The notes under the pieces were generated by a model. It did not search any database, was not told the origin of the DNA, and worked only from the letters and a program-made list of their open reading frames with translations. From Steroidobacteraceae bacterium (GTDB lineage: Bacteria; Pseudomonadota; Gammaproteobacteria; Steroidobacterales; Steroidobacteraceae), in NCBI GenBank assembly GCA_035277965.1, contig DATEJM010000004.1, positions 22,868-86,867 of the forward strand: 64,000 bases of DNA, given 5' to 3'. Of the stretch, positions 21,571 to 34,582 are shown piece after piece. The first letter of the stretch is position 1, and each line of letters begins with the position of its first letter. The translations under genes and the position numbers were made by a program.

Positions 21571-22427
21571 GTCAGCCTGTACGGATGCGCATAGACCACG
21601 TGCTGCTCGCGTCGGGCGAAAGCGACGAGCGTGAGGCCCGTCCGCGCCGCCAGTTGAATCGCAAGCGCCGTGGGTGCGGACAGCGCCGCCAGAAACGCGA
21701 TACCAACGGTCGCACACTTCTGGACCATCTCGAAACTCGCGCGGCTCGTGATCAGCATGTAGCCGGAGCTCAGATCCCGGCGGGCCCGAACGAGCGCGCC
21801 GATGGCCTTGTCCAGGGCGTTGTGTCGACCGACGTCCTCGCGGACGAGTTGGATGCCGCGACCCGGAATCACCCAGGCCGCAGCATGGACACTTCCCGTT
21901 TGAGCGTTGAGCGGCTGTCGGGAGCTCAACTCCTCGATCGCAGCGTGCAGATCGGCAACGGGGACCCTGGCTCCGGGACCGACGGGCACGCAATCGCGCG
22001 CGGCCATCTCTGCGCTCTCTACGCCACACAGACCGCAGCCCGTGCGTCCAGTGAGATTGCGCCGTCGCTTGAGCAGCTCGGAGAAGCGCTCCCACGCGAT
22101 CGTGACACGAACGTTCGCCCCCGCCTGGGTATACGCGGCTTCCACGGAGCGGATCTCGTCCGCGTGTGCGACCAGGCCTTCACTCAAGGTGAAGCCCACC
22201 GCATAGTCCTCGAGATCGGCGGGCGTCGCCAGCATGACCACGTGCGGCACCCCATGGTACACAAAGGCAACCAGCGCTTCCTCGGCCACCTGATCCGTCA
22301 TGGATATCGATTGCCCGCAGCTCCAGCGCTCGACCGGAACTTCAACGCTGCTCCGCTTCTGCGTTGCGGCCGCCTGCTCCTTTTCGGTCGCGGGCATTGA
22401 ACCTTCCGGAAGCACGTCGCGCGTCAC
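21567..22427 (-). CDS. fdhD: Formate dehydrogenase accessory sulfurtransferase FdhD
   Basis: 286 aa. Reads RTGCGLCGVES...VGRHNALDK. Confidence 0.85.
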   Translation of the reverse strand: MTRDVLPEGSMPATEKEQAAATQKRSSVEVPVERWSCGQSISMTDQVAEEALVAFVYHGVPHVVMLATPADLEDYAVGFTLSEGLVAHADEIRSVEAAYTQAGANVRVTIAWERFSELLKRRRNLTGRTGCGLCGVESAEMAARDCVPVGPGARVPVADLHAAIEELSSRQPLNAQTGSVHAAAWVIPGRGIQLVREDVGRHNALDKAIGALVRARRDLSSGYMLITSRASFEMVQKCATVGIAFLAALSAPTALAIQLAARTGLTLVAFARREQHVVYAHPYRLT

Positions 22428-25288
22428 GCTGGCGTCGCATCCCGCGGGCGCTTACGCATCGGCCGCAGCGCACGCTCCTCCGCCGCTCGCCTTTGCCACG
22501 CATCACGCTGGTTCACGAGGACAACTTCGACCGCGGTGACCTTGTACTCCGGGCAGTTCGTCGCCCAATCGGAATTCTCGGTCGTCACGACGTTCGCGTT
22601 CGTCTCCGGGAAATGGAAGGTCGTGTACACGACCCCGGGGGCGATCTTTTCGGTCACCTGCGCACGCAGCACTGTTTCACCCGCGCGGCTCGTCAGGCCA
22701 ACCCAGTCGCCGTCTTCGATACCTCTGACATCGGCGTCGTGAGGATGTATCTCCAGCACGTCCTCGGCATGCCACACGACATTTTGAGTGCGGCGCGTCT
22801 GCGCGCCGACGTTGTACTGAGTCAGCACGCGTCCCGTCGTGAGGATCAGGGGGAAGCGGCTGGTGGTGCGCTCGCTGGTTGGCACATACTCCGTCGGGTA
22901 GAACTTGCCCTTCCCGCGAACAAACTGATGCACGTGCATCGTCGTCGTCCCTTCCGGAGCGGTATCGTTGCAGGGCCACTGAATGCTTCCGAGGCGATCC
23001 AGCTTCTCGTAGGTCACGCCGGCGAACGTCGGCGTCAGCCGCGCGATCTCGTCCATGATCTGTGCGGGATGGCCATAGCTCATCGGATATCCCAGGGCAT
23101 TCGACAGCAGCTGCGTCACCTCCCAGTCCGCGTAGCCCGCCCGGGGCTCCATGATCTTGCGGACCCGCGAGATTCGCCGCTCGGCGTTGGTGAAGGTGCC
23201 ATCCTTCTCGAGGAAGGACGAGCCCGGCAGGAACACGTGTGCGAATCTCGCCGTCTCATTGAGAAACAGATCCTGGACGATCACGCACTCGAGCGCCTCC
23301 ATCGCGCGACTCACGTGATGGGTGTTCGGGTCGGACTGCACGAAGTCCTCTCCTTGCACGTACATGCCGCGGAAGCTGCCATCGAGAGCGGCCTCGAACA
23401 TGTTGGGAATGCGCAGGCCCGGCTCGTCGAGCAGGCTCACCCCCCAGGCCGACTCGAAGAGCCCGCGCGCGGCCGGATCGGACACGTGCCGGTAGCCGCT
23501 CAGCTCGTGCGGGAATGATCCCATGTCGCAGGACCCCTGCACGTTGTTCTGTCCCCGCAGGGGATTCACGCCGACGCCTTCGCGCCCGAGATGACCGGTG
23601 GCCATCGCGAGATTCGCGATGGCCATGACTGCGGTCGTGCCCTGGCTGTGCTCGGTCACCCCCAGACCGTAGTAGATCGCGCTGTTTCCGCCGGTTGCGT
23701 ACAGCCGCGCGGCGCGCCGTACGAGATCCGCCGGGACGCCCGTGATCGCCTCCGTTGCTTGCGGAGAATTGCGCGGCTGCGCCACGAACCGCTTCCAGGT
23801 TTCATAGGCTGCCTGCTCACAGCGTTCAGCTACGTAAGCCTCCTGAGTCAACCCTTCGGTGACCACGACGTGAGCCAGAGCGTTCAATACGGCGACGTTG
23901 GTCCCTGGGGTGAGCTGCAGATGCGCATCTGCCTGCACGTGCGGTGTGCGCACCAGTGCCGTGACACGCGGATCGATGACGATCAATTTCGCTCCCTGCC
24001 GCAGGCGCTGCTTGAGCTTCGAAGCAAAGACGGGATGCCCGTCGGTCGGATTCGCGCCGATGATCATGATGACGTCCGCCTTCATCACGGACGTGAAAGC
24101 CTGAGTGCCGGCCGACTCTCCCAGGGTGTGCTTGAGTCCGTAGCCGGTTGGCGAGTGGCAGACCCGGGCGCACGTGTCGACGTTGTTGTTCCCGAAGGCC
24201 GCCCGGACGAGCTTCTGAACGAGAAAAGTCTCCTCGTTCGTGCATCGTGAGGAAGTGATTCCGCCGACCGAATCGCGGCCATAGCGCGCCTGAATCCGCC
24301 GGATCTCGCGGGCCGCGTGTCCGATCGCCTCCTCCCAGGAAACTGCACGCCAGTCGTCGGTGATTCGCGCGCGGATCAGTGGCGTGAGCACGCGATCCGC
24401 GTGCGTCGCATACCCGAATGCAAACCGTCCCTTGACGCACGCGTGCCCTTGGTTCGCATGACCGCTGCGGGCAGGCACCATCCTGACGACCTCGGTTTCG
24501 GGGCCCGCGCCGGTTACCTCAGCCGTGAAACTACACCCCACTCCGCAGTACGCGCAGGTTGTCGTGACGGCCCTCTCGGGCTGTCCCAGACCGATCACCG
24601 ACTTCTCCGCCAGGGCCGCTGTCGGACACGCCTCCACGCACGCTCCGCAGGAGACACATTCGGAATCGAGAAACGGCTGGCCCTCGCTGGCCACGATCCG
24701 GGATGCGAAGCCGCGTCCTTCCACGGTAAGAGCGAACGTCCCCTGAACCTCATCGCAGGCTCGCACGCACCGCGAACACGCGATGCAGAGCTCCGGGTCA
24801 AAGGTGAAATACGGATTGCTCTCATCCTTCGCGAGCGGCCGGTGCCCCGCGCCCTGCAAGCCGTATGGGCTGGAAGTGACCTGCAGCGCCGCGGCGACGT
24901 CCTGCAGCTCGCAATGGCCGTTTGCCGGGCACGCCGCACAATCGAGCGGGTGATCGGAGACGTACAGATCCAACACTCCGCGCCGCAGTTGCGTCAGCTT
25001 CTCGGATTGCGTGCGAATCCTCATTCCGGCCGCGACGGCGGTCGTGCACGATGCCGGATAGCCGCGGCGACCCTCGATCTCGACGAGACACAGCCGGCAC
25101 GAGCCAAACGCCTTCAGCGTATCCGTCGCGCACAGTTTGGGGACCTTTACGCCGGCGAGCGCCGCGGCACGCATCACGGACGTACCTTCGGGCACGCTGA
25201 TCGTCACTCCGTCCACCTCGACGGCGATGAGATCGGAGGCCGATACCGCCGCCGGTGTGCCGAGGTCCTCGTGGTCAATCGCAAACAT
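22424..25288 (-). CDS. fdsA: NAD-dependent formate dehydrogenase alpha subunit (2Fe-2S and 4Fe-4S N-terminus, molybdopterin domain, Cys-type active site)
   Basis: 954 aa. N-terminus CRLCLVEIEG, ferredoxin CIACSRCVRAC/CVSCGACVEACP, and the MopB part with TCARVCHSPT (Cys, no in-frame TGA). Confidence 0.9.
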   Translation of the reverse strand: MFAIDHEDLGTPAAVSASDLIAVEVDGVTISVPEGTSVMRAAALAGVKVPKLCATDTLKAFGSCRLCLVEIEGRRGYPASCTTAVAAGMRIRTQSEKLTQLRRGVLDLYVSDHPLDCAACPANGHCELQDVAAALQVTSSPYGLQGAGHRPLAKDESNPYFTFDPELCIACSRCVRACDEVQGTFALTVEGRGFASRIVASEGQPFLDSECVSCGACVEACPTAALAEKSVIGLGQPERAVTTTCAYCGVGCSFTAEVTGAGPETEVVRMVPARSGHANQGHACVKGRFAFGYATHADRVLTPLIRARITDDWRAVSWEEAIGHAAREIRRIQARYGRDSVGGITSSRCTNEETFLVQKLVRAAFGNNNVDTCARVCHSPTGYGLKHTLGESAGTQAFTSVMKADVIMIIGANPTDGHPVFASKLKQRLRQGAKLIVIDPRVTALVRTPHVQADAHLQLTPGTNVAVLNALAHVVVTEGLTQEAYVAERCEQAAYETWKRFVAQPRNSPQATEAITGVPADLVRRAARLYATGGNSAIYYGLGVTEHSQGTTAVMAIANLAMATGHLGREGVGVNPLRGQNNVQGSCDMGSFPHELSGYRHVSDPAARGLFESAWGVSLLDEPGLRIPNMFEAALDGSFRGMYVQGEDFVQSDPNTHHVSRAMEALECVIVQDLFLNETARFAHVFLPGSSFLEKDGTFTNAERRISRVRKIMEPRAGYADWEVTQLLSNALGYPMSYGHPAQIMDEIARLTPTFAGVTYEKLDRLGSIQWPCNDTAPEGTTTMHVHQFVRGKGKFYPTEYVPTSERTTSRFPLILTTGRVLTQYNVGAQTRRTQNVVWHAEDVLEIHPHDADVRGIEDGDWVGLTSRAGETVLRAQVTEKIAPGVVYTTFHFPETNANVVTTENSDWATNCPEYKVTAVEVVLVNQRDAWQRRAAEERALRPMRKRPRDATPA

Positions 25289-25333
25289 GGTCTGTCTCCT
25301 GAAGGTGAGCGCGCGGCAGCTGCCGCGACCGCC

Positions 25334-26878
25334 TCATTGCCGTGCTCCGATGCGGAAATCTTCGCGAAAATGCTTGAGCACGCTCTGCACGGGGAAAGGA
25401 GTCATCCCTCCGAGCCCGCACAGTGAGCCATATAGCATGGTTTCGCAAAGCTCCTCGAGCAGCCGCAGGTTACGCTCGCTCTCCACACCGCTCAGGATGC
25501 GATCGATGACCTCCACGCCGCGGGTCGAGCCTATGCGGCAGGGCGTGCATTTCCCGCAGGACTCGAGCGCGCAGAATTCCATCGCATAGCGTGCCATCCG
25601 CGCCATGTCGACCGTGTCATCGAATACAACCAGGCCGCCGTGGCCGAGCAACGCACCGATTCCCGACAGCGCCTCGTAGTCGATCCGGGTGTCGAACTGG
25701 GCCGGCGGCACGTAAGCCCCGAGCGGGCCGCCGATCTGCACCGCCCGGATCGGCCTTCCGGAGGCCGTACCGCCCCCGTAATCGTGCAGCAGCTCGCGCA
25801 GACTGACGCCGAAGGCGCATTCGATGAGTCCGCCCCGCTTCACATTCCCCGCCAGCTGCAGAGGCAGCGTGCCGCGCGACTGACCGACTCCGAATTCCCG
25901 GTAGAAAGTGGCACCGTGCCGCAGGATGGCCGGAACGGTTGCGAGAGTGATCACATTGTTGACGATCGTCGGCCGCCCGAACAGCCCCTTGATCGCCGGC
26001 AGCGGCGGCCGCACCCGGACCTCGCCGCGCTTGCCCTCGAGACTCTCCAACATCGAGGTTTCTTCGCCGCAGATGTACGCTCCGGCTCCGAGTCGAACCT
26101 CCAGATCGAACCGGCGGCCGCTGCCGAGGATGTCGGCACCCAGATAACGGGCGCGGTAGCAAGCCTCGATCGCCGCCTTCAGGGCGCGGTGCGCGTGCGG
26201 ATACTCGACTCGCAGATAGATGTAGCCCTGCGAGGCGCCCGCGGCGATCCCGGCGATCGTCATGCCTTCGATGAGCGACAGCGGATCGCCTTCCATCAAC
26301 ATCCGATCGGAAAATGTGCCCGAATCGCCTTCGTCCGCGTTGCATGCGACATACTTCAGCCCGTCCGCCTGCTCGAGCACGGTCTTCCACTTGACGCCCG
26401 TGGGGAATGCCGCGCCGCCACGCCCGCGCAACCCTGAATCCACCACCGTTTGGACAATCGATTCCGGGCTCATCGAGAGGGCACGGCGCAGGCCCTCGAA
26501 GCCTCCATGCTCCCGATAGTCCTCGATGCTCAAAGGATCGATCACCCCGACGCGCGCGAACGTCAGACGCTGCTGACTGGCCAGCCACTCGATGGACTCC
26601 GTCCGCCCATGCCCGAGGGGATGAGCGCCGCCGTGCAGGAAGTCCCCGGTAAAGAGACTCGGTACGTCGGCGGCGCCGACGGGACCGTACGCAACGCGCC
26701 CTTGCGCCGTCGCCACCTCCACCATGGGCTCGAGCCAGTACATCCCTCGCGAGCCGTTGCGCACCAACTTCACATCCAACCGTCGGGAACGCGCTTCGCG
26801 CGCAATCGCATCAGCGACCTCTGCAGCGCCAAGCGACAGAGCTCCCGCATCGCCCGGCACATACACCGTGACGGTCAT
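25334..26878 (-). CDS. fdsB: Formate dehydrogenase beta subunit (NuoF-like NAD/FMN/4Fe-4S)
   Basis: 514 aa. Contains GRGGAAFPTG, ADEGDSGTF and ESCGKCTPCR. Confidence 0.9.
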   Translation of the reverse strand: MTVTVYVPGDAGALSLGAAEVADAIAREARSRRLDVKLVRNGSRGMYWLEPMVEVATAQGRVAYGPVGAADVPSLFTGDFLHGGAHPLGHGRTESIEWLASQQRLTFARVGVIDPLSIEDYREHGGFEGLRRALSMSPESIVQTVVDSGLRGRGGAAFPTGVKWKTVLEQADGLKYVACNADEGDSGTFSDRMLMEGDPLSLIEGMTIAGIAAGASQGYIYLRVEYPHAHRALKAAIEACYRARYLGADILGSGRRFDLEVRLGAGAYICGEETSMLESLEGKRGEVRVRPPLPAIKGLFGRPTIVNNVITLATVPAILRHGATFYREFGVGQSRGTLPLQLAGNVKRGGLIECAFGVSLRELLHDYGGGTASGRPIRAVQIGGPLGAYVPPAQFDTRIDYEALSGIGALLGHGGLVVFDDTVDMARMARYAMEFCALESCGKCTPCRIGSTRGVEVIDRILSGVESERNLRLLEELCETMLYGSLCGLGGMTPFPVQSVLKHFREDFRIGARQ

Positions 26879-27384
26879 CGGGGCACTCCGCTGTCACCGG
26901 CGGCCTCAGGGGCGAGTCCACGTTCAACCAGCAGCGTATCCAACTTTTCAGGGGTGACTCGTCCGTACAGGAGGCCATCGATCATCGCCGCCGGGGAGCA
27001 CGCGCAGTTGCCCAGACAGTAGACCGGCTCGAGGGAGAATCCCCTGTCGGGCGTCGTCTCGTGAAAACCGACTCCCAGCCGCCGTTGAGCGTGTGCAGCG
27101 AGCGCTTCGGCGCCCATCGCCTGACAGGCCTCTGCCCGGCACAGGCCCACGGTGTGCCTGCCCGGCGGCTGCGAGCGGAAGTGGTGATAGAAGGTCACGA
27201 CGCCGTGAACTTCGGCCCGCGACAGATTCAAGCCCTCGGCGATCAGGGCCACCGCTCCCGCCGGGATACAACCCAGAGAATTCTGAACTGCGTGCAGCAC
27301 CTCGAGGAGGGGCCCCGGCTGCCCTATGAATTGCGCCACGATATGACGCACTGTCTCGCGGTGCTCTGGAGAAATAGTTCCCAT
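26875..27384 (-). CDS. fdsG: Formate dehydrogenase gamma subunit (NuoE-like 2Fe-2S)
   Basis: 169 aa. Reads CRAEACQAMG...CLGNCACSPA. 4-nt overlap with fdsB. Confidence 0.85.
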   Translation of the reverse strand: MGTISPEHRETVRHIVAQFIGQPGPLLEVLHAVQNSLGCIPAGAVALIAEGLNLSRAEVHGVVTFYHHFRSQPPGRHTVGLCRAEACQAMGAEALAAHAQRRLGVGFHETTPDRGFSLEPVYCLGNCACSPAAMIDGLLYGRVTPEKLDTLLVERGLAPEAAGDSGVPR

Positions 27385-27568: not shown

Positions 27569-28309
27569 TTGGTTCAAGCAAGATGTGGCCATCGCTCCCG
27601 CGTCGCCGGGAGCCTGATCTGGATCGTGCTCGCCGCTGCCGTCTGCGGCAAGAGCGCGCGCGCCGCTTCGGTCGGCGGCGACGTGACCCTGGCCAGCACC
27701 TATATCTTCCGAGGATTGTCGCTCAGCGACGACTGGCCCGCAGGCCAGCTCGATCTGCATGTCTCGACCGGCACGGGCACGTTCGTGGGTGCTTTTGCCT
27801 CGACGCTGCACAATCGGCACGGCGGCACGCCCCTGGAGCTCCAGGCCTACCTCGGTCAGCGTTTCAATCTGTCCCCCACCTGGAGCGTCACGTTCACGGG
27901 CGTCCACTACGCCTACTTGAATGATGGCCAGGCGCATTCCGATGACTATCAGGAGCTGTCCGCGGCGGTCTCGTACCTGGATCGTTTCACTCTGTCGGTC
28001 GGAGGCACCCCGAACATCGTGCGCTACTGGATGGGGTACCGGCTGGGCCGCTATGCCGCTTATGTCACGGACGCGACCGCGCAAGTTCCCCTCTGGGGCC
28101 CCGTGCTGGTCACTGCCGGCATCGGCTATTACTCCCTGAGCGGCCCGGCGGGCATGGGGTACCTCTATGGAAACAGCGGCTTAGCGTACGAGCGCGGCCG
28201 CTTTCGCGTGGATGCCGGGTATTTTTTCACGGACAGCCACGCAGAGCGGCTGTATCCCTACGGCCTCGCCCGCAACCGCTTCGCGGCCAGCCTGAGCTGG
28301 CATTTTTAG
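27569..28309 (+). CDS. TorF-family (Gcw_chp) outer-membrane beta-barrel protein
   Basis: Signal peptide ...AVCGKSARAA, then GGDVTLASTYIFRGLSLSDDWPAGQLDL, the hallmark of the TorF putative porin family. Terminal aromatic ...SLSWHF. TTG start. Confidence 0.65.
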   Translation: MVQARCGHRSRVAGSLIWIVLAAAVCGKSARAASVGGDVTLASTYIFRGLSLSDDWPAGQLDLHVSTGTGTFVGAFASTLHNRHGGTPLELQAYLGQRFNLSPTWSVTFTGVHYAYLNDGQAHSDDYQELSAAVSYLDRFTLSVGGTPNIVRYWMGYRLGRYAAYVTDATAQVPLWGPVLVTAGIGYYSLSGPAGMGYLYGNSGLAYERGRFRVDAGYFFTDSHAERLYPYGLARNRFAASLSWHF

Positions 28310-28329
28310 CGCAGAATTTTTAGCGCAGA
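28302..28329 (+). repeat. Perfect 14-bp tandem duplication (ATTTTTAGCGCAGA x2) spanning the porin stop codon
   Basis: Read directly: gc ATTTTTAGCGCAGA ATTTTTAGCGCAGA ct. Confidence 0.9.
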
Positions 28330-28381
28330 CTAGTGAACCCGGGTCGCTTCCGCGGGCACCTACCGCAGGAGGAAGCGTGGC

Positions 28382-29044
28382 TTGAGAGGTTCCCATCACA
28401 ACGAGACGCGTGGCACGCCCGTGAGCGGCGATCCCGGCTATCGGACGGGCTCGTCGGCGGCGCGCGAGACGGAGCTCATCGCCAAGATCGCTGCCGGAGA
28501 CCGGCGGGCGTTCGAGGAGCTTTACAACCTCTACCACCGGCGCCTCGCTCGATTCCTCACACGTTTGACGAGGCGCTACGATATAGCCGAAGAGGTCATC
28601 AACGACACCTTCTGGATCGTCTGGCGCAAGGCCGGCGATTTTCGCGGGGACTCCCAACCCTCCACCTGGATATTGGGAATCGCCTACCGAAAAGCGAGAA
28701 ACGCGTTCCGAACGGCTGCGCGGACCGTCCCCGGCGAGAACCTGGACGCTTCGCTCGCGCCACTTACGAGCGACGACACGGCGCACGCCGCAGAGTTGCG
28801 CGACTGGCTGGTGCAGGCCCTGGGCCATTTGCCGGTGGAGCAACGCCTGGCCGTCGAGTTGTGCTACGAGCTTGGTCATTCATGCGAGGAGATTGCGACC
28901 ATCATGGGCTGCCCCGTCAACACGGTGAAGACGCGCCTGTTTCACGCGCGCGCGAAGCTGCAGAAGCTGCTGCCCGCCTTGGGCGGAGGCGACGGACCAG
29001 CGCCGCTCGCCCACTCCACCGACCGCTCCCGAGGCCCGAAATGA
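28382..29044 (+). CDS. ECF (sigma-70 family) RNA polymerase sigma factor
   Basis: Region 2 is IAEEVINDTFWIVWRKAGDFRGDSQPSTWILGIAYRKA. Region 4 is LPVEQRLAVELCYELGHSCEEIATIMGCPVNTVKTRLFHARAKL. AGGAGG lies 10 nt before TTG 28382; the exact start is uncertain. Confidence 0.85.
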   Translation: MRGSHHNETRGTPVSGDPGYRTGSSAARETELIAKIAAGDRRAFEELYNLYHRRLARFLTRLTRRYDIAEEVINDTFWIVWRKAGDFRGDSQPSTWILGIAYRKARNAFRTAARTVPGENLDASLAPLTSDDTAHAAELRDWLVQALGHLPVEQRLAVELCYELGHSCEEIATIMGCPVNTVKTRLFHARAKLQKLLPALGGGDGPAPLAHSTDRSRGPK

Positions 29045-29808
29045 GCATCGCCGAGCGAGACACGACCCACGAGGAGACCTGGCAGATGCTGCCCTGGGTC
29101 GCCAATGGTCGCATTTCGAGCGCCGAGCGCGAACGGTTGGAAGCTCATGTGCGTGAATGCCCCGTGTGCACGATGGAGCTCGCTTTGCAGCGGCGCCTGT
29201 GCGAGGCGCTCGCGGAACCGGATCGTGTGACCTACGCGCCTGGGCCCTCTTTCCGTAAGTTGCTAGAGAAAATCGACGCCGACGGGGACTCGCACACCGA
29301 TACGGCAGTTGCTCAGGATGAGTCGCAGATGCCTGCCAACAGCGCGCTGGCCGGGAGCCGCCTCGCCGGAAGCCGCCTCGCCGGGAGCCGTCCGGGTCTG
29401 TGGCGCCCGCCGGGGCTGGCTTGGGCTGCGAGCTTCCTGTTGGTGCTGACTGTCGGAGTGCTGTCGACCGCGTATCGCTGGTCGGAGCCGCTATACCGCA
29501 CTCATACGGACGCCAGCGCCGCGACACCGGCCGTGTTGCACGTTGCGTTCGACAGATCGATCACGCTTGGCGCGATTGAAGAGATGTTAGGAGCGAACGG
29601 CGCGCGCGTCGTCGAGGGCCCGGGTAACACGGGGATCTTCGGCGTGACATCCGCGGGCATCGTGGCTGGCCAGACTTCGGCCGCGGATGCGAAGCGCCAG
29701 ATCCGGCTGCTCTCGACCCGTCTGCGCGGCGATTCCCGCGTGCGCTGGGTAGAGCCGGTCGCAGACGATGCCGCACCGGAGCCAGCGCACGCCGACAAGG
29801 GGCCGTGA
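29041..29808 (+). CDS. Anti-sigma factor: zf-HC2 domain, one TM helix, periplasmic I9-propeptide-like domain
   Basis: ATGA overlap with the sigma gene. HVRECPVCTMEL matches H-x3-C-x2-C and the TM helix is GLAWAASFLLVLTVGVLSTAY. The C-domain ends ...LSTRLRGDSRVRWVEPV. Confidence 0.8.
   Translation: MSIAERDTTHEETWQMLPWVANGRISSAERERLEAHVRECPVCTMELALQRRLCEALAEPDRVTYAPGPSFRKLLEKIDADGDSHTDTAVAQDESQMPANSALAGSRLAGSRLAGSRPGLWRPPGLAWAASFLLVLTVGVLSTAYRWSEPLYRTHTDASAATPAVLHVAFDRSITLGAIEEMLGANGARVVEGPGNTGIFGVTSAGIVAGQTSAADAKRQIRLLSTRLRGDSRVRWVEPVADDAAPEPAHADKGP
29347..29391 (+). repeat. 15-bp x3 in-frame tandem repeat encoding LAGSR-LAGSR-LAGSR
   Basis: Units are ctggccgggagccgc / ctcgccggaagccgc / ctcgccgggagccgt. 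They lie in the cytoplasmic linker just before the anti-sigma TM helix. Confidence 0.9.
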
Positions 29809-31196
29809 TGCATGCGCGGCTTGATCGGGCCCTCGCTCTGGTGCTGCTCGTGGTGCTCCACGGCGCCGCATGGGCACAGGCCCCTTCACCGCCATTGCCG
29901 GCGCAGGACCCGCTCGTCGTCGTCACGTTCGCCAACCAGCCTCATCTCTCCACGCCGCCCGCGGGCACCACGGGCCGCCGCTATGCCGGTGACCTCTACG
30001 GCGTGAGCCAGACGGCCCACTCCGAATCGCATCGCGTCGCGGCAGACTACGGGCTCACCGAAGTCGCGAGCTGGCCGATCAAGGCGCTCGCCGCTCACTG
30101 TGTCGTCTATCGCGTGCGGGGCGAACGCTCGCTCACGGATGTATTGGCAGCTCTGCGGAAGGATCCGAGGGTCACGCTCGCACAGCCGCTACAGCACTTT
30201 CACACGCTCGGTGCCTCCTCCGCTCTGCGTCCCAACATCGACCAGACGGCGGGCACCCCGGCGCAACGGGACAGCCCGCGTGAGCAGCCTGTCGCAACGG
30301 CCCAGACGCCGGACGGCAAAGCGCAAGCCCATGTGCCAGCGTACAACGATCCGCTCTACGACCTGCAGACGAATCTGCAGGCACTCGACATCGAGGCCGC
30401 GCACTCGCGCTCCCAGGGGGCAGGGGTGCGTGTCGGTCTGATCGACACCGGCGTTGACGCCCGACACCCCGATCTTCGCGGCCGCGTCATCGCGACGCAC
30501 TCCTTCATTCCGAGCGGCACACGCACCATCCAGGCCTATCGCCACGGCACGGCCATGGCCGGACTGATCGCGGCGGTCGCAAACAATGGGATCGGCATCG
30601 TCGGCATTGCGCCGCTGGCCCGGATCGAGGTGTTCGAGGCGTGTTGGCAATTGTCATTGGATAGCGACGCGGCCGAATGCAACACGTTCACGCTCGCCAG
30701 GGCACTCGCGGCGGCTCTCGATTCCGGGGTTCCCATCGTCAACATCAGTATCGGCGGACCCTCCGATCCGCTGCTGTCAGCCCTGATCGCCGCGGGATTG
30801 AAGCGTGGGATCATCTTCGTCGGCTCCACCGGCGACAGCGGCGACAGGTTTCCGACCGCGACCGCGGGAGTGATCGCAGTGAGTGGGGCCGAGCATGTTG
30901 CCCCGGGGGCAGTGTTCGCCGTTCCGGCGAGCCACGTGTTGACTCTGCATCCGGACGGTCAGTATGAGTTCGAATCGGGAACGTCGGTGGCCGCGGCTCA
31001 GGCGACGGGAATCATCGCTCTGCTGCTCGGCGTGGACTCCCATCTCTCAGCCGATCGTGTCGTGTCACTGCTGCGCTCCGGCAGCTCTGAGCGGGCAGCG
31101 GCCGATGCAACGAGGGTGGCGGTGATCAGCGCGGGCTCGATCGCGACGGCGCTCGATTTCGGTCCCCAACGGATGGCGGCGAGAGCATCCCGATAG
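29805..31196 (+). CDS. Secreted S8 (subtilisin-family) serine peptidase with N-terminal propeptide-like region
   Basis: Signal peptide ...VLHGAAWA/QA. Catalytic triad contexts are GLIDTGVDARHPDL (D), HGTAMAGLIAA (H) and GTSVAAAQATGIIALLL (S). The GTG/ATG start overlaps the anti-sigma stop. Confidence 0.85.
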   Translation: MMHARLDRALALVLLVVLHGAAWAQAPSPPLPAQDPLVVVTFANQPHLSTPPAGTTGRRYAGDLYGVSQTAHSESHRVAADYGLTEVASWPIKALAAHCVVYRVRGERSLTDVLAALRKDPRVTLAQPLQHFHTLGASSALRPNIDQTAGTPAQRDSPREQPVATAQTPDGKAQAHVPAYNDPLYDLQTNLQALDIEAAHSRSQGAGVRVGLIDTGVDARHPDLRGRVIATHSFIPSGTRTIQAYRHGTAMAGLIAAVANNGIGIVGIAPLARIEVFEACWQLSLDSDAAECNTFTLARALAAALDSGVPIVNISIGGPSDPLLSALIAAGLKRGIIFVGSTGDSGDRFPTATAGVIAVSGAEHVAPGAVFAVPASHVLTLHPDGQYEFESGTSVAAAQATGIIALLLGVDSHLSADRVVSLLRSGSSERAAADATRVAVISAGSIATALDFGPQRMAARASR

Positions 31197-31392
31197 CGCT
31201 CCGAGGTCCCCAAGCGCGCTGGAGGTGAATGTTTGCCCCGGGACGAAGTCCGTTGCCGATTAACAAATGGTGCCGGGCCGAGCACGAAGCTCGACCCGAC
31301 ACCCCCTCGATCCAGGAACGGCAGGAGCCGGACTTTATAGGAGCTGCGGCGTTTGTGGTAGCAGAATTCGCGCCGCAGCATGAGCGAGGCCA

Positions 31393-33994: not shown

Positions 33995-34582
33995 ATGTTC
34001 GCCAGCATGCCACCCGCCACGCGGGTCCTCATCTTCGTGAACGCCATGGTGTATCTGCTGCAGCAGATGGCGCCCCGCGCGATCGATACCTTGTTTGCCC
34101 TGTGGCCGCTGGGACCCTTGTTCCAGCCGTGGCAGCTCATCACTTATGCGTTCCTGCACGCCAGCTTCGCCCACATCTTCTTCAACATGTTCGCCCTCTT
34201 CATGTTCGGAGGCGCGCTCGAGCGTTTCTGGGGTAGCGGCCGCTTTCTGGTGTTCTATCTGGTCAGCGTGCTCGGCGCTGCCGCGACTCAACTCGCGGTG
34301 CAGGTGCTGGCACGGACCGGCGAGCCGGTGATCGGGGCCTCGGGGGGCGTGTTCGGCTTGCTGCTGGCTTTCGCGTGGTATTTCCCGCGGCAGCGGATCA
34401 TCCTGCTCTTCCCGCCAATCCCGATGCCCGCGTGGCTGTTCGTGACCCTCTACGGCGGCATCGAGCTGATCCTGGGGGTAACGGGGTCGCAGACGGGCGT
34501 GGCCCACTTTGCGCATCTCGGCGGAATGCTGGGCGGCGCCATCATGATCCTGCTGTGGCGGCGCGGGGGCAGGGCACATTGA
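33995..34582 (+). CDS. Rhomboid-family intramembrane serine protease
   Basis: 195 aa, polytopic. Catalytic Ser context GASGGVFGLL and His context HFAHLGGMLGG. Confidence 0.8.
   Translation: MFASMPPATRVLIFVNAMVYLLQQMAPRAIDTLFALWPLGPLFQPWQLITYAFLHASFAHIFFNMFALFMFGGALERFWGSGRFLVFYLVSVLGAAATQLAVQVLARTGEPVIGASGGVFGLLLAFAWYFPRQRIILLFPPIPMPAWLFVTLYGGIELILGVTGSQTGVAHFAHLGGMLGGAIMILLWRRGGRAH

Follow-up and report, generated by a model that had tools for sequence, protein, structure and literature searches.

A sigma/anti-sigma/subtilase operon of the Steroidobacteraceae with a propeptide-like anti-sigma ectodomain: a candidate protease-gated ECF switch

Gene Content and Organization of the Cassette

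We analyzed a 64-kb stretch of DNA (the window; contig DATEJM010000004.1) from a soil bacterium of the family Steroidobacteraceae. A cassette at positions 27569-31196 of the plus strand contains four genes in the same orientation, which encode a TorF-type porin, a sigma factor of the extracytoplasmic function (ECF) class, a zinc-finger anti-sigma factor and a peptidase of family S8 (Table 1). We consider here the possibility that the periplasmic domain (ectodomain) of the anti-sigma factor mimics a subtilase propeptide and that the co-encoded S8 protease gates the sigma factor by cutting it. The original prediction on this DNA had named the four co-oriented genes, each of which was identified by Pfam or NCBIfam profiles, and the peptide stretches that it quoted from the anti-sigma and the protease read as given. 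Its description of the last three genes as coupled stop to start was also correct: the sigma stop shares ATGA (29041-29044) with the anti-sigma start, and GTGATG (29805-29810) holds both the anti-sigma stop and the S8 start. An identical protein (P0001) is on record for a metagenome-assembled genome of the Steroidobacteraceae. Such coupling may yield sigma, anti-sigma and protease in fixed proportion, as had been proposed.

Table 1. Features of the cassette, in window positions.
Feature	Position	Strand	Basis or details
TorF/Gcw_chp-family outer-membrane porin gene	27569..28309	+	PF09694 E 7e-10, 39.7 bits (cutoff 24); TIGR02001 60.4 bits (cutoff 47.15)
Terminator-like hairpin and T-run at porin gene end	28286..28309 (hairpin 28286-28301)	+	GCCAGCCTGAGCTGGC then ATTTTTAG; consensus match only
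Candidate ECF-type promoter	28334..28362	+	-35 TGAACC 28334-28339; -10 CACCTA 28357-28362
ECF (group 4) sigma gene	28382..29044	+	TTG start; ribosome-binding site GGAGGA 28368-28373; 220 aa
Class I zinc-binding anti-sigma (ZAS) gene	29041..29808	+	255 aa, ATG start; zf-HC2 E 4e-6
Propeptide-like periplasmic domain of anti-sigma, aa 166-238	29536..29754	+	AlphaFold2 model, Foldseek
Motif shared with S8 prodomain, anti-sigma aa 221-243	29701..29769	+	IRLLSTRLRGDSRVRWVEPVADD; hhalign
S8 subtilase gene	29805 (GTG, 463 aa) or 29808 (ATG, 462 aa)..31196	+	Peptidase_S8 E 1e-25
S8 N-terminal prodomain, aa 36-133, ending ...LTDVLAALRKDPRVTLAQPLQHFHTL	29910..30203	+	PF22148, position, AlphaFold2 model
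Asp344 codon, at oxyanion-hole Asn position (BPN' N155)	30834..30836	+	HMMER alignment; loop 30819-30848

The sigma protein carries the sigma-2 and sigma-4 regions only, with matches to Sigma70_r2 (E 3e-11), Sigma70_r4_2 (E 5e-17), Sigma70_ECF (E 5e-10) and TIGR02937 (88 bits, cutoff 42.9). The best NCBIfam match to a named model, PRK12515, reached 125 bits, far under its 236-bit cutoff. Orthologues of the sigma factor are 69-83% identical. The anti-sigma factor consists of a cytoplasmic domain (about aa 1-80), a variable linker, a single transmembrane (TM) helix (about aa 125-145, nt 29413-29475) and the periplasmic domain. In an alignment of 40 anti-sigma homologues H10, H36, C40, C43, WRPPGLAWAASF and T154 are invariant. 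The H-x3-C-x2-C zinc motif is present in the N-terminal domain, and the WRPPGLAWAASF stretch runs into the TM helix. Beyond the membrane lies a juxtamembrane motif, Y-x-T-[HY]-T (YRTHT in the window, aa 152-156), followed by a conserved C-terminal domain of ~75 residues. From gene order and domain family, the anti-sigma factor would act by binding the co-encoded sigma and inhibiting it. A 491-aa open reading frame (28333-29808, plus strand) extends the anti-sigma frame back across the sigma gene, which lies in another frame; this was rejected as a high-GC artefact, since the homologues and the ATGA overlap set the true anti-sigma start at 29041.

Conservation of the Sigma/Anti-sigma/S8 Triad

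One genome per species was scanned for the cassette, which gave 80 loci, all in Steroidobacteraceae-like metagenome-assembled genomes. The S8 gene is present in 76 of the 80 loci, with the porin-sigma-anti-sigma-S8 order and strand kept, and the remaining four are cut by contig ends. In nearly all of the 76 orthologous loci the distance from the anti-sigma stop to the S8 start is between -4 and +9 nt. The upstream formate dehydrogenase (fdh) cluster is syntenic in 43 of the 80 loci, and the downstream ddl gene in only eight.

Weaker ectodomain matches define subfamilies that are ~30% identical to the window anti-sigma. These gave eight distinct places (L081-L086, L088/L089/L090 and L091/L092), and the sigma/anti-sigma/Peptidase_S8 tandem was found in all eight, with unrelated flanking genes. 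Another candidate, L087 (P0373), matched weakly in the N-terminal part only and has a TPR-like neighbor; it was rejected as a non-member. An S8 gene is adjacent to the ectodomain gene in every context examined. The sigma/anti-sigma/S8 triad, kept at ~30% identity among unrelated neighbors, behaves as one unit. Gene linkage, chosen beforehand as a test on which the original prediction could fail, was thus found to be conserved among both close and distant relatives.

An exhaustive search of 1.84 billion cluster representatives with a hidden Markov model of the ectodomain returned 81 clusters only. All have at most 294 aa and end in the domain, and none is as long as a protease. This placement, C-terminal in a TM anti-sigma factor, is unlike that of the usual propeptide, which stands N-terminal to a peptidase or forms a free inhibitor.

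Predicted Fold of the Anti-sigma Ectodomain

The original prediction had read a beta-alpha-beta-beta-alpha-beta layout from the ectodomain sequence. AlphaFold2, run on an alignment of 30 ectodomains, recovered this layout, with block means of the predicted local distance difference test (pLDDT) of 77-90 across the fold; strands were modeled at aa 166-170, 188-192, 199-204 and 234-238, and helices at aa 176-185 and 214-229. We compared the model with the PDB by Foldseek. Subtilase propeptides or I9 inhibitors took ranks 1-4 and made up 15 of the 31 top matches. The best match was the subtilisin BPN' prosegment (1spb_P; E 0.021, probability 1.00, target-normalised TM-score 0.68), followed by 2z57_B, 1scj_B and 3whi_A, and then by 3cnq_P, Tk-subtilisin propeptides, furin-bound PC1/3 prodomains and POIA1. 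The propeptide matches as a group had E-values of 0.02-0.3, probabilities of 0.9-1.00 and TM-scores of 0.65-0.73 normalised by target. Matches of this kind are not automatic for a ferredoxin-like fold, because the same search with a model of the S8 N-domain (see below) returned none.

Taking structure and sequence into account, we consider a prodomain-type fold probable for the ectodomain. The predicted likeness to Inhibitor_I9 was seen in part: the topology agrees and propeptides are the top Foldseek matches, at weak E-values and with RRM folds interleaved; it did not extend to sequence-level membership of that family, and NCBIfam profiles placed neither I9 nor any other family on the ectodomain. 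We make no claim of homology to I9 in the strict sense.

The length of the tail after the last strand differs between lineages. In the distant subfamilies the anti-sigma ends 5-9 residues past this strand, which is the length of a processed propeptide's tail, and Arg is the last residue (..AR or ..PR) of at least 30 of 71 proteins. Main-clade proteins have a tail (29755-29805 in the window) of 18 or 26 residues, with Glu-His at the end of 84 of 120.

Likeness of the Ectodomain to the Prodomain of the Cognate Protease

In the S8 protein an N-domain with a variable linker behind it separates the Sec signal peptide from the catalytic domain, a position that suits a prodomain. Pfam family PF22148 (Fervidolysin_NPro-like) matches this domain in 19 of 26 S8 orthologues (best E 3.6e-4), which supports the earlier claim that the protease has a propeptide-like N-region of its own; the window copy itself scored E 0.16 and 12.8 bits, below the cutoff of 21. 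The AlphaFold2 model of the prodomain is beta-alpha-beta-beta-alpha with a pLDDT of 68, a topology in keeping with a prodomain. Foldseek with this model returned generic ACT/ferredoxin-like folds and no propeptides, which serves as a control and gives the prodomain no structural confirmation, and a sequence-profile search of the PDB with the N-domain gave no meaningful match.

We aligned ectodomain and cognate prodomain profiles to each other by hhalign. Shallow alignments gave a probability of 53%; deeper profiles, built from 210 ectodomains and 77 protease N-domains, raised it to 81% (E 1.2e-5, score 35.7). The confident part covers the last helix, the last strand and the tail, where '..aRLRADpRVrfvEPl' of the ectodomain aligns with '..aaL.kDprV.lAQPLqeF' of the protease. 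In 150 column shuffles of the protease alignment the score was 11.1±2.2 with a maximum of 19.4, so that none of the 150 reached 35.7, and the reversed alignment scored 12.7. Control domains from the same locus (sigma, porin, S8 catalytic domain and anti-sigma N-domain) scored 10-19 at probabilities below 1.5%. The C-terminal propeptide signature noted in the original prediction thus stands in one respect, as the helix and strand that carry it match the cognate S8 prodomain significantly; no I9 profile matched it. In the solved complexes 1SPB and 1SCJ the terminal part of the propeptide leads into the active-site cleft. The specific motif shared by ectodomain and cognate prodomain would fall in this cleft-leading part.

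A second short motif, [FY]-x-T-x-[TS], occurs twice in the cassette: in the anti-sigma at Y152-T156 (29494-29508), and in the S8 protein at F128-G132 (FHTLG, 30186-30200). The anti-sigma copy, YRTHT, lies just outside the TM helix and includes the invariant T154; the S8 copy, mostly FHTL[TS], lies at the end of the prodomain. Both copies could mark a cleavage site that the two proteins share. When the juxtamembrane motif of the anti-sigma was compared with the prodomain junction of S8, the putative P1 residue (the fourth motif position) showed no covariation.

One metagenomic protein, P0248 (294 aa), has the ectodomain up to ...ALAARLHADQRV fused in frame to the last helix and strand of the S8 prodomain (RAVPEVLAALSKDARVVLAQPL...), and then the catalytic domain. 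The join sits at the motif common to ectodomain and prodomain. P0248 could be either a real deletion or an assembly chimera.

The S8 Protease and Its Oxyanion Hole

The S8 protein is composed of a signal peptide (about aa 1-24), the prodomain (about 36-133), the variable linker (134-178) and the catalytic domain (179 to about 440). Its closest solved relatives by HMMER are thermitase and the subtilisins (E 1e-22 to 1e-17). All 77 of 77 S8 sequences, the distant ones included, keep the catalytic residues D214, H247 and S394, and three Cys are invariant as well. The original prediction had called the protease secreted, which is probably wrong. The protein has a Sec signal peptide and no secretion domain, and 14 of the 77 orthologues (L001, L015, L026, L083, L086 and others) carry a lipobox-like motif in the signal peptide. 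Some lineages may have a lipoprotein form of the enzyme and others, among them that of the window copy, a soluble one. Because of the Sec signal, the three invariant Cys, the lipoboxes in some members and the lack of a secretion domain, we consider it more likely to be periplasmic or membrane-anchored than secreted.

The oxyanion-hole Asn is absent from the protease. In the HMMER alignment G-N-x-G of thermitase and BPN' corresponds to G343-D344-S345-G346 of the window copy, and across the orthologues the oxyanion column holds Gly (27), Asp (20), Ala (14) and Glu (11). Asn is missing from the entire oxyanion loop in 73 of 77 sequences. This residue is nearly universal in subtilases, PC2 with Asp being the known exception, and PC1/3 mutants at the position still remove their prodomain and lose activity in trans (PMC4182778). 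By analogy, the absent Asn predicts that S8 may be a poor general protease, efficient only on a substrate held like a prodomain, and hence a dedicated signaling enzyme. A role in anti-phage defense was rejected: PADLOC gave only generic subtilase/IetS-domain matches to the S8 catalytic domain and none for the other three proteins, with no system-specific match.

Promoter and Transcription Unit

The porin-sigma intergenic region contains the motif tTGAACC-N16/17-(g)ACACTTAC, which is visible in most of 75 such regions. The exact gapped k-mer occurs in 57 of the 75, and a relaxed pattern matches 76 of 92 loci. In the window the motif occurs once (0.00 expected), ~20 nt upstream of GGAGGA, the ribosome-binding site of the sigma gene, and of its TTG start; a second copy, which would indicate further regulon members, was not found in the 64 kb. 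Among the distant loci the motif also lies 5' of the sigma gene in L081, L084, L086 and L088, and L091 carries the form AGAACC there; L082 and L085 have a variant upstream of the porin instead. This layout has the expected shape of an autoregulated ECF promoter of the GAAC type (consensus TGAACC-N16/17-CACTTA) that would drive sigma, anti-sigma and S8 as one operon. Extra copies of TGAACC-N16/17-CAC(T/C)(T/C)A were observed in L082 (~9090), L085 (~7701 and ~7793), L084 (~1981) and L081 (~2692 and ~2734). The genes next to them, among them one for a Big_7-domain protein, two divergent genes of unknown function and an unknown gene of 461 aa, may be regulon members specific to their lineage.

The porin gene is upstream of sigma in nearly all 80 main-clade loci and in L081, L082, L084-L086 and L091. 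It is missing in L088-L090 (the P0363 lineage; GCA_041609615.1, GCA_041608635.1), which keep the sigma/anti-sigma/S8 triad. In these three loci two opposite-strand unknown genes take the place of the Gcw_chp porin, and the porin was rejected as an obligatory component of the cassette. The porin is probably transcribed separately from the sigma operon, because a terminator-like hairpin (28286-28301) closes the porin gene and the conserved promoter (28334-28362) follows it. Of the four-gene cassette first described, then, the sigma/anti-sigma/S8 unit stands, and the porin is probably a neighbor with its own transcript that one lineage lacks.

Proposed Mechanism and Alternative Explanations

We propose that the cassette is an ECF switch gated by a protease through propeptide mimicry, in which the ectodomain is a tethered pseudo-propeptide clipped by the S8 protease. 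We give this reading a probability of about 0.5. Such a system would be a self-contained, autoregulated envelope signaling operon, P(ECF)-sigma-anti-sigma-pro-subtilase. The following scheme is what we infer for the interaction of ectodomain and S8, for cleavage, for the direction of control, for the role of a site-2 protease and for the inducing signal. In the resting state, the zinc-finger domain of the anti-sigma would keep sigma at the inner membrane. The periplasmic domain of the anti-sigma would be a copy or mimic of a subtilase prodomain, and the co-encoded periplasmic S8 would be exported as a zymogen bearing a prodomain of its own. An S8 molecule with a free propeptide site would then dock the ectodomain, with the beta-sheet against the surface of the enzyme and the C-terminal tail within the substrate cleft or close to it. 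The docked ectodomain would be clipped or degraded, as subtilases do with their cognate propeptides, and this would be the site-1 event. A site-2 protease and cytoplasmic proteases would clear the rest of the anti-sigma, and the freed sigma would transcribe the operon from the TGAACC-N16/17-CACTTA promoter. Coupled translation would remake sigma, anti-sigma and zymogen together and so reset the system. We hold a fuller version more tentatively, at somewhat short of an even chance: that the ectodomain arose as a duplicated prodomain, that the Asn-less S8 acts only on prodomain-docked substrates and that sigma activity reports a free propeptide site.

Several findings weigh against this proposal. 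The Foldseek matches of the ectodomain have weak E-values, the best being 0.02 and none reaching 1e-3, and RRM and other ferredoxin-like folds are interleaved among the propeptides; the failure of the S8 prodomain model to retrieve propeptides also implies that fold search does not discriminate well at such a size. No Pfam family, I9 included, matched the ectodomain (30 ectodomains at E<=10, the full protein at E<=1), and a profile search of the PDB by sequence gave no chain matching it. An hhalign comparison with a small set of I9 propeptide sequences gave 9% probability in the correct register, which is to be taken as a lead only. The significant profile likeness to the cognate prodomain spans only ~23-30 columns (last helix, strand and tail). 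The absent oxyanion Asn could mean that S8 has hardly any cleaving activity. Every member belongs to a single uncultured lineage of soil gammaproteobacteria or to its relatives, and shared ancestry therefore contributes to the linkage. Finally, a protease co-transcribed with sigma and anti-sigma also fits a simple output gene.

This last point leads to the first alternative, in which S8 is the main envelope protease of the regulon, the ectodomain senses an unrelated periplasmic cue, perhaps via the porin, and the propeptide likeness reflects a generic ferredoxin-like fold. DegP made under sigma-E is a precedent. An S8 gene in sigma's own operon behind an ECF-type promoter is a common arrangement for outputs; the weak fold matches with RRM folds mixed in, the missing I9 sequence match and the adjacent porin in most lineages are in line with this explanation as well. 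It leaves unexplained, however, the shuffle-resistant likeness between the C-terminal helix and strand of the ectodomain and those of the cognate prodomain, the fact that the ectodomain family is never seen apart from S8, and a degradative protease without the oxyanion-hole Asn; the porin, moreover, is dispensable in one lineage. We regard the output-gene explanation as rather unlikely.

In a second alternative the ectodomain is a tethered inhibitor or chaperone, that is, a membrane-bound second propeptide that folds, inhibits or localizes S8, and sigma is released by another cue, for example zinc-finger redox; alternatively, the system acts as a homeostat, free protease titrating the ectodomain with no cleavage. 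The PCSK9 prodomain, which stays bound to its enzyme, offers an analogy. The prodomain-like fold and motif speak for such a role, the short and often Arg-ended tails of the distant subfamilies resemble the product-like tail of a processed propeptide, the zinc site (H/H/C/C) is complete, and the absent Asn suggests binding over turnover (PMC4182778). On the other hand, S8 already has a conserved prodomain of its own, which makes a second foldase seem redundant; the strictly conserved catalytic triad argues for real catalysis; and a main-clade tail of 18-26 residues is over-long for a product mimic. A tethered inhibitor seems to us quite improbable.

That the genes have no functional relationship, the linkage being vertical inheritance in one family and the motif match composition or convergence, is very improbable: all loci do come from Steroidobacteraceae-like metagenome-assembled genomes, and the upstream fdh cluster is likewise syntenic in 43 of 80, but the triad persists at ~30% identity with entirely different neighbors, the stop/start overlap is maintained, and neither composition-preserving shuffles nor same-locus control domains came near the observed profile score.

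Neighboring Genes

Directly upstream of the cassette, on the opposite strand, lies the three-gene formate dehydrogenase-type cluster (22424-27384, minus strand), which encodes a molybdopterin alpha subunit and NuoF-like and NuoE-like proteins. A gene for a rhomboid-family intramembrane serine protease with GASGG and H..HLGG motifs (33995-34582, plus strand) is located 2.8 kb downstream. It is probably unrelated to the cassette, since only eight of 80 related loci have a homologue within 5 kb of it. A 15-bp GC-rich hairpin (31269-31303) separates the S8 gene from the convergent ddl gene; this hairpin is probably the ddl terminator, because its T-run is on the minus strand only. A canonical terminator for the sigma operon was not found.

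Relation to Known Systems and Significance

Regulated intramembrane proteolysis (RIP) of ECF anti-sigma factors is known from RseA/DegS/RseP of Escherichia coli, from RsiW/PrsW/RasP of Bacillus subtilis, from RsiV or RsiP with signal peptidase, and from cell-surface signaling in Pseudomonas with Prc/CtpA; the proposed logic resembles that of RseA, RsiW, RsiV and FecR-type anti-sigma factors. The known site-1 proteases belong to S1 (DegS), to the PrsW type, to signal peptidase and to S41. To our knowledge, none of them is a subtilase, and their genes are generally not translationally coupled to that of the anti-sigma; nor do we know of an anti-sigma sensor domain that resembles the propeptide of its protease. 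The cassette shares with RIP systems the single-pass membrane anti-sigma and the autoregulated ECF sigma, and an extracytoplasmic protease is proposed here for the first cut. It differs from them in the subtilase, in the coupled protease gene and in the propeptide-like sensor. A further parallel is found in Bacillus sporulation, where SpoIVB and CtpB, dedicated secreted serine proteases, cut a membrane regulator and so lead to the processing of pro-sigma-K. There too a dedicated serine protease licenses intramembrane proteolysis and sigma activation, as proposed for S8; SpoIVB and CtpB, however, belong to S55 and S41, their target inhibits a site-2 protease and is not an anti-sigma, and no propeptide mimicry is involved.

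Compared with the subtilase propeptides and I9 proteins themselves (the BPN'/E prosegment, Tk-propeptide, furin/PC1 and POIA1), the ectodomain model has the same topology, and the protein has the L..L..D..V.(Y/W/F)VE motif and a short tail; unlike them it is C-terminal in a transmembrane regulator and has no Pfam I9 match. Genes for ECF54-type sigma factors have subtilase, carboxypeptidase or CHAT genes nearby, and proteolytic control has been proposed for them, with the sigma itself as the proposed target and no anti-sigma present (PMC8999054). ECF54 was the only ECF-subtilase association met in our literature searches (PMC8999054), and it shares with the cassette the genetic linkage of an ECF sigma to a subtilase; here, in contrast, a ZAS anti-sigma is present, translationally coupled and the presumed target. 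PC2 and PCSK9 provide a functional analogy only: in these subtilases, which have an atypical oxyanion hole or a permanently bound prodomain, prodomain binding outweighs bulk proteolysis, and a residue other than Asn stands at the oxyanion position (Asp in PC2; PMC4182778), whereas they are eukaryotic secretory-pathway enzymes without a link to transcription. Within the library searched, there was no paper that pairs 'anti-sigma' with 'Inhibitor_I9', or with 'Peptidase_S8' plus 'ECF', and the main text of the ECF classification paper (PMC7826278) makes no mention of S8.

The cassette would be a new variant of regulated proteolysis, for which the support is purely computational and consistent. 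For most ECF sigma/anti-sigma pairs the signal perception and the first-cut protease are unknown; here a sensor and a candidate site-1 protease are encoded together, and since the sensor resembles the natural ligand of the protease, the mechanism is concrete and directly testable. If the proposal is true, subtilases would join the short list of site-1 proteases, with S8 as the first dedicated subtilase of this kind for an ECF anti-sigma, and a protease prodomain would have been re-used as a signaling receptor, the first case of propeptide mimicry in transmembrane signaling. The family would also represent a natural case of a bacterial subtilase in which the triad is strictly conserved although the oxyanion-hole Asn is missing, and the sigma/anti-sigma/protease set would be a compact orthogonal module for synthetic biology.

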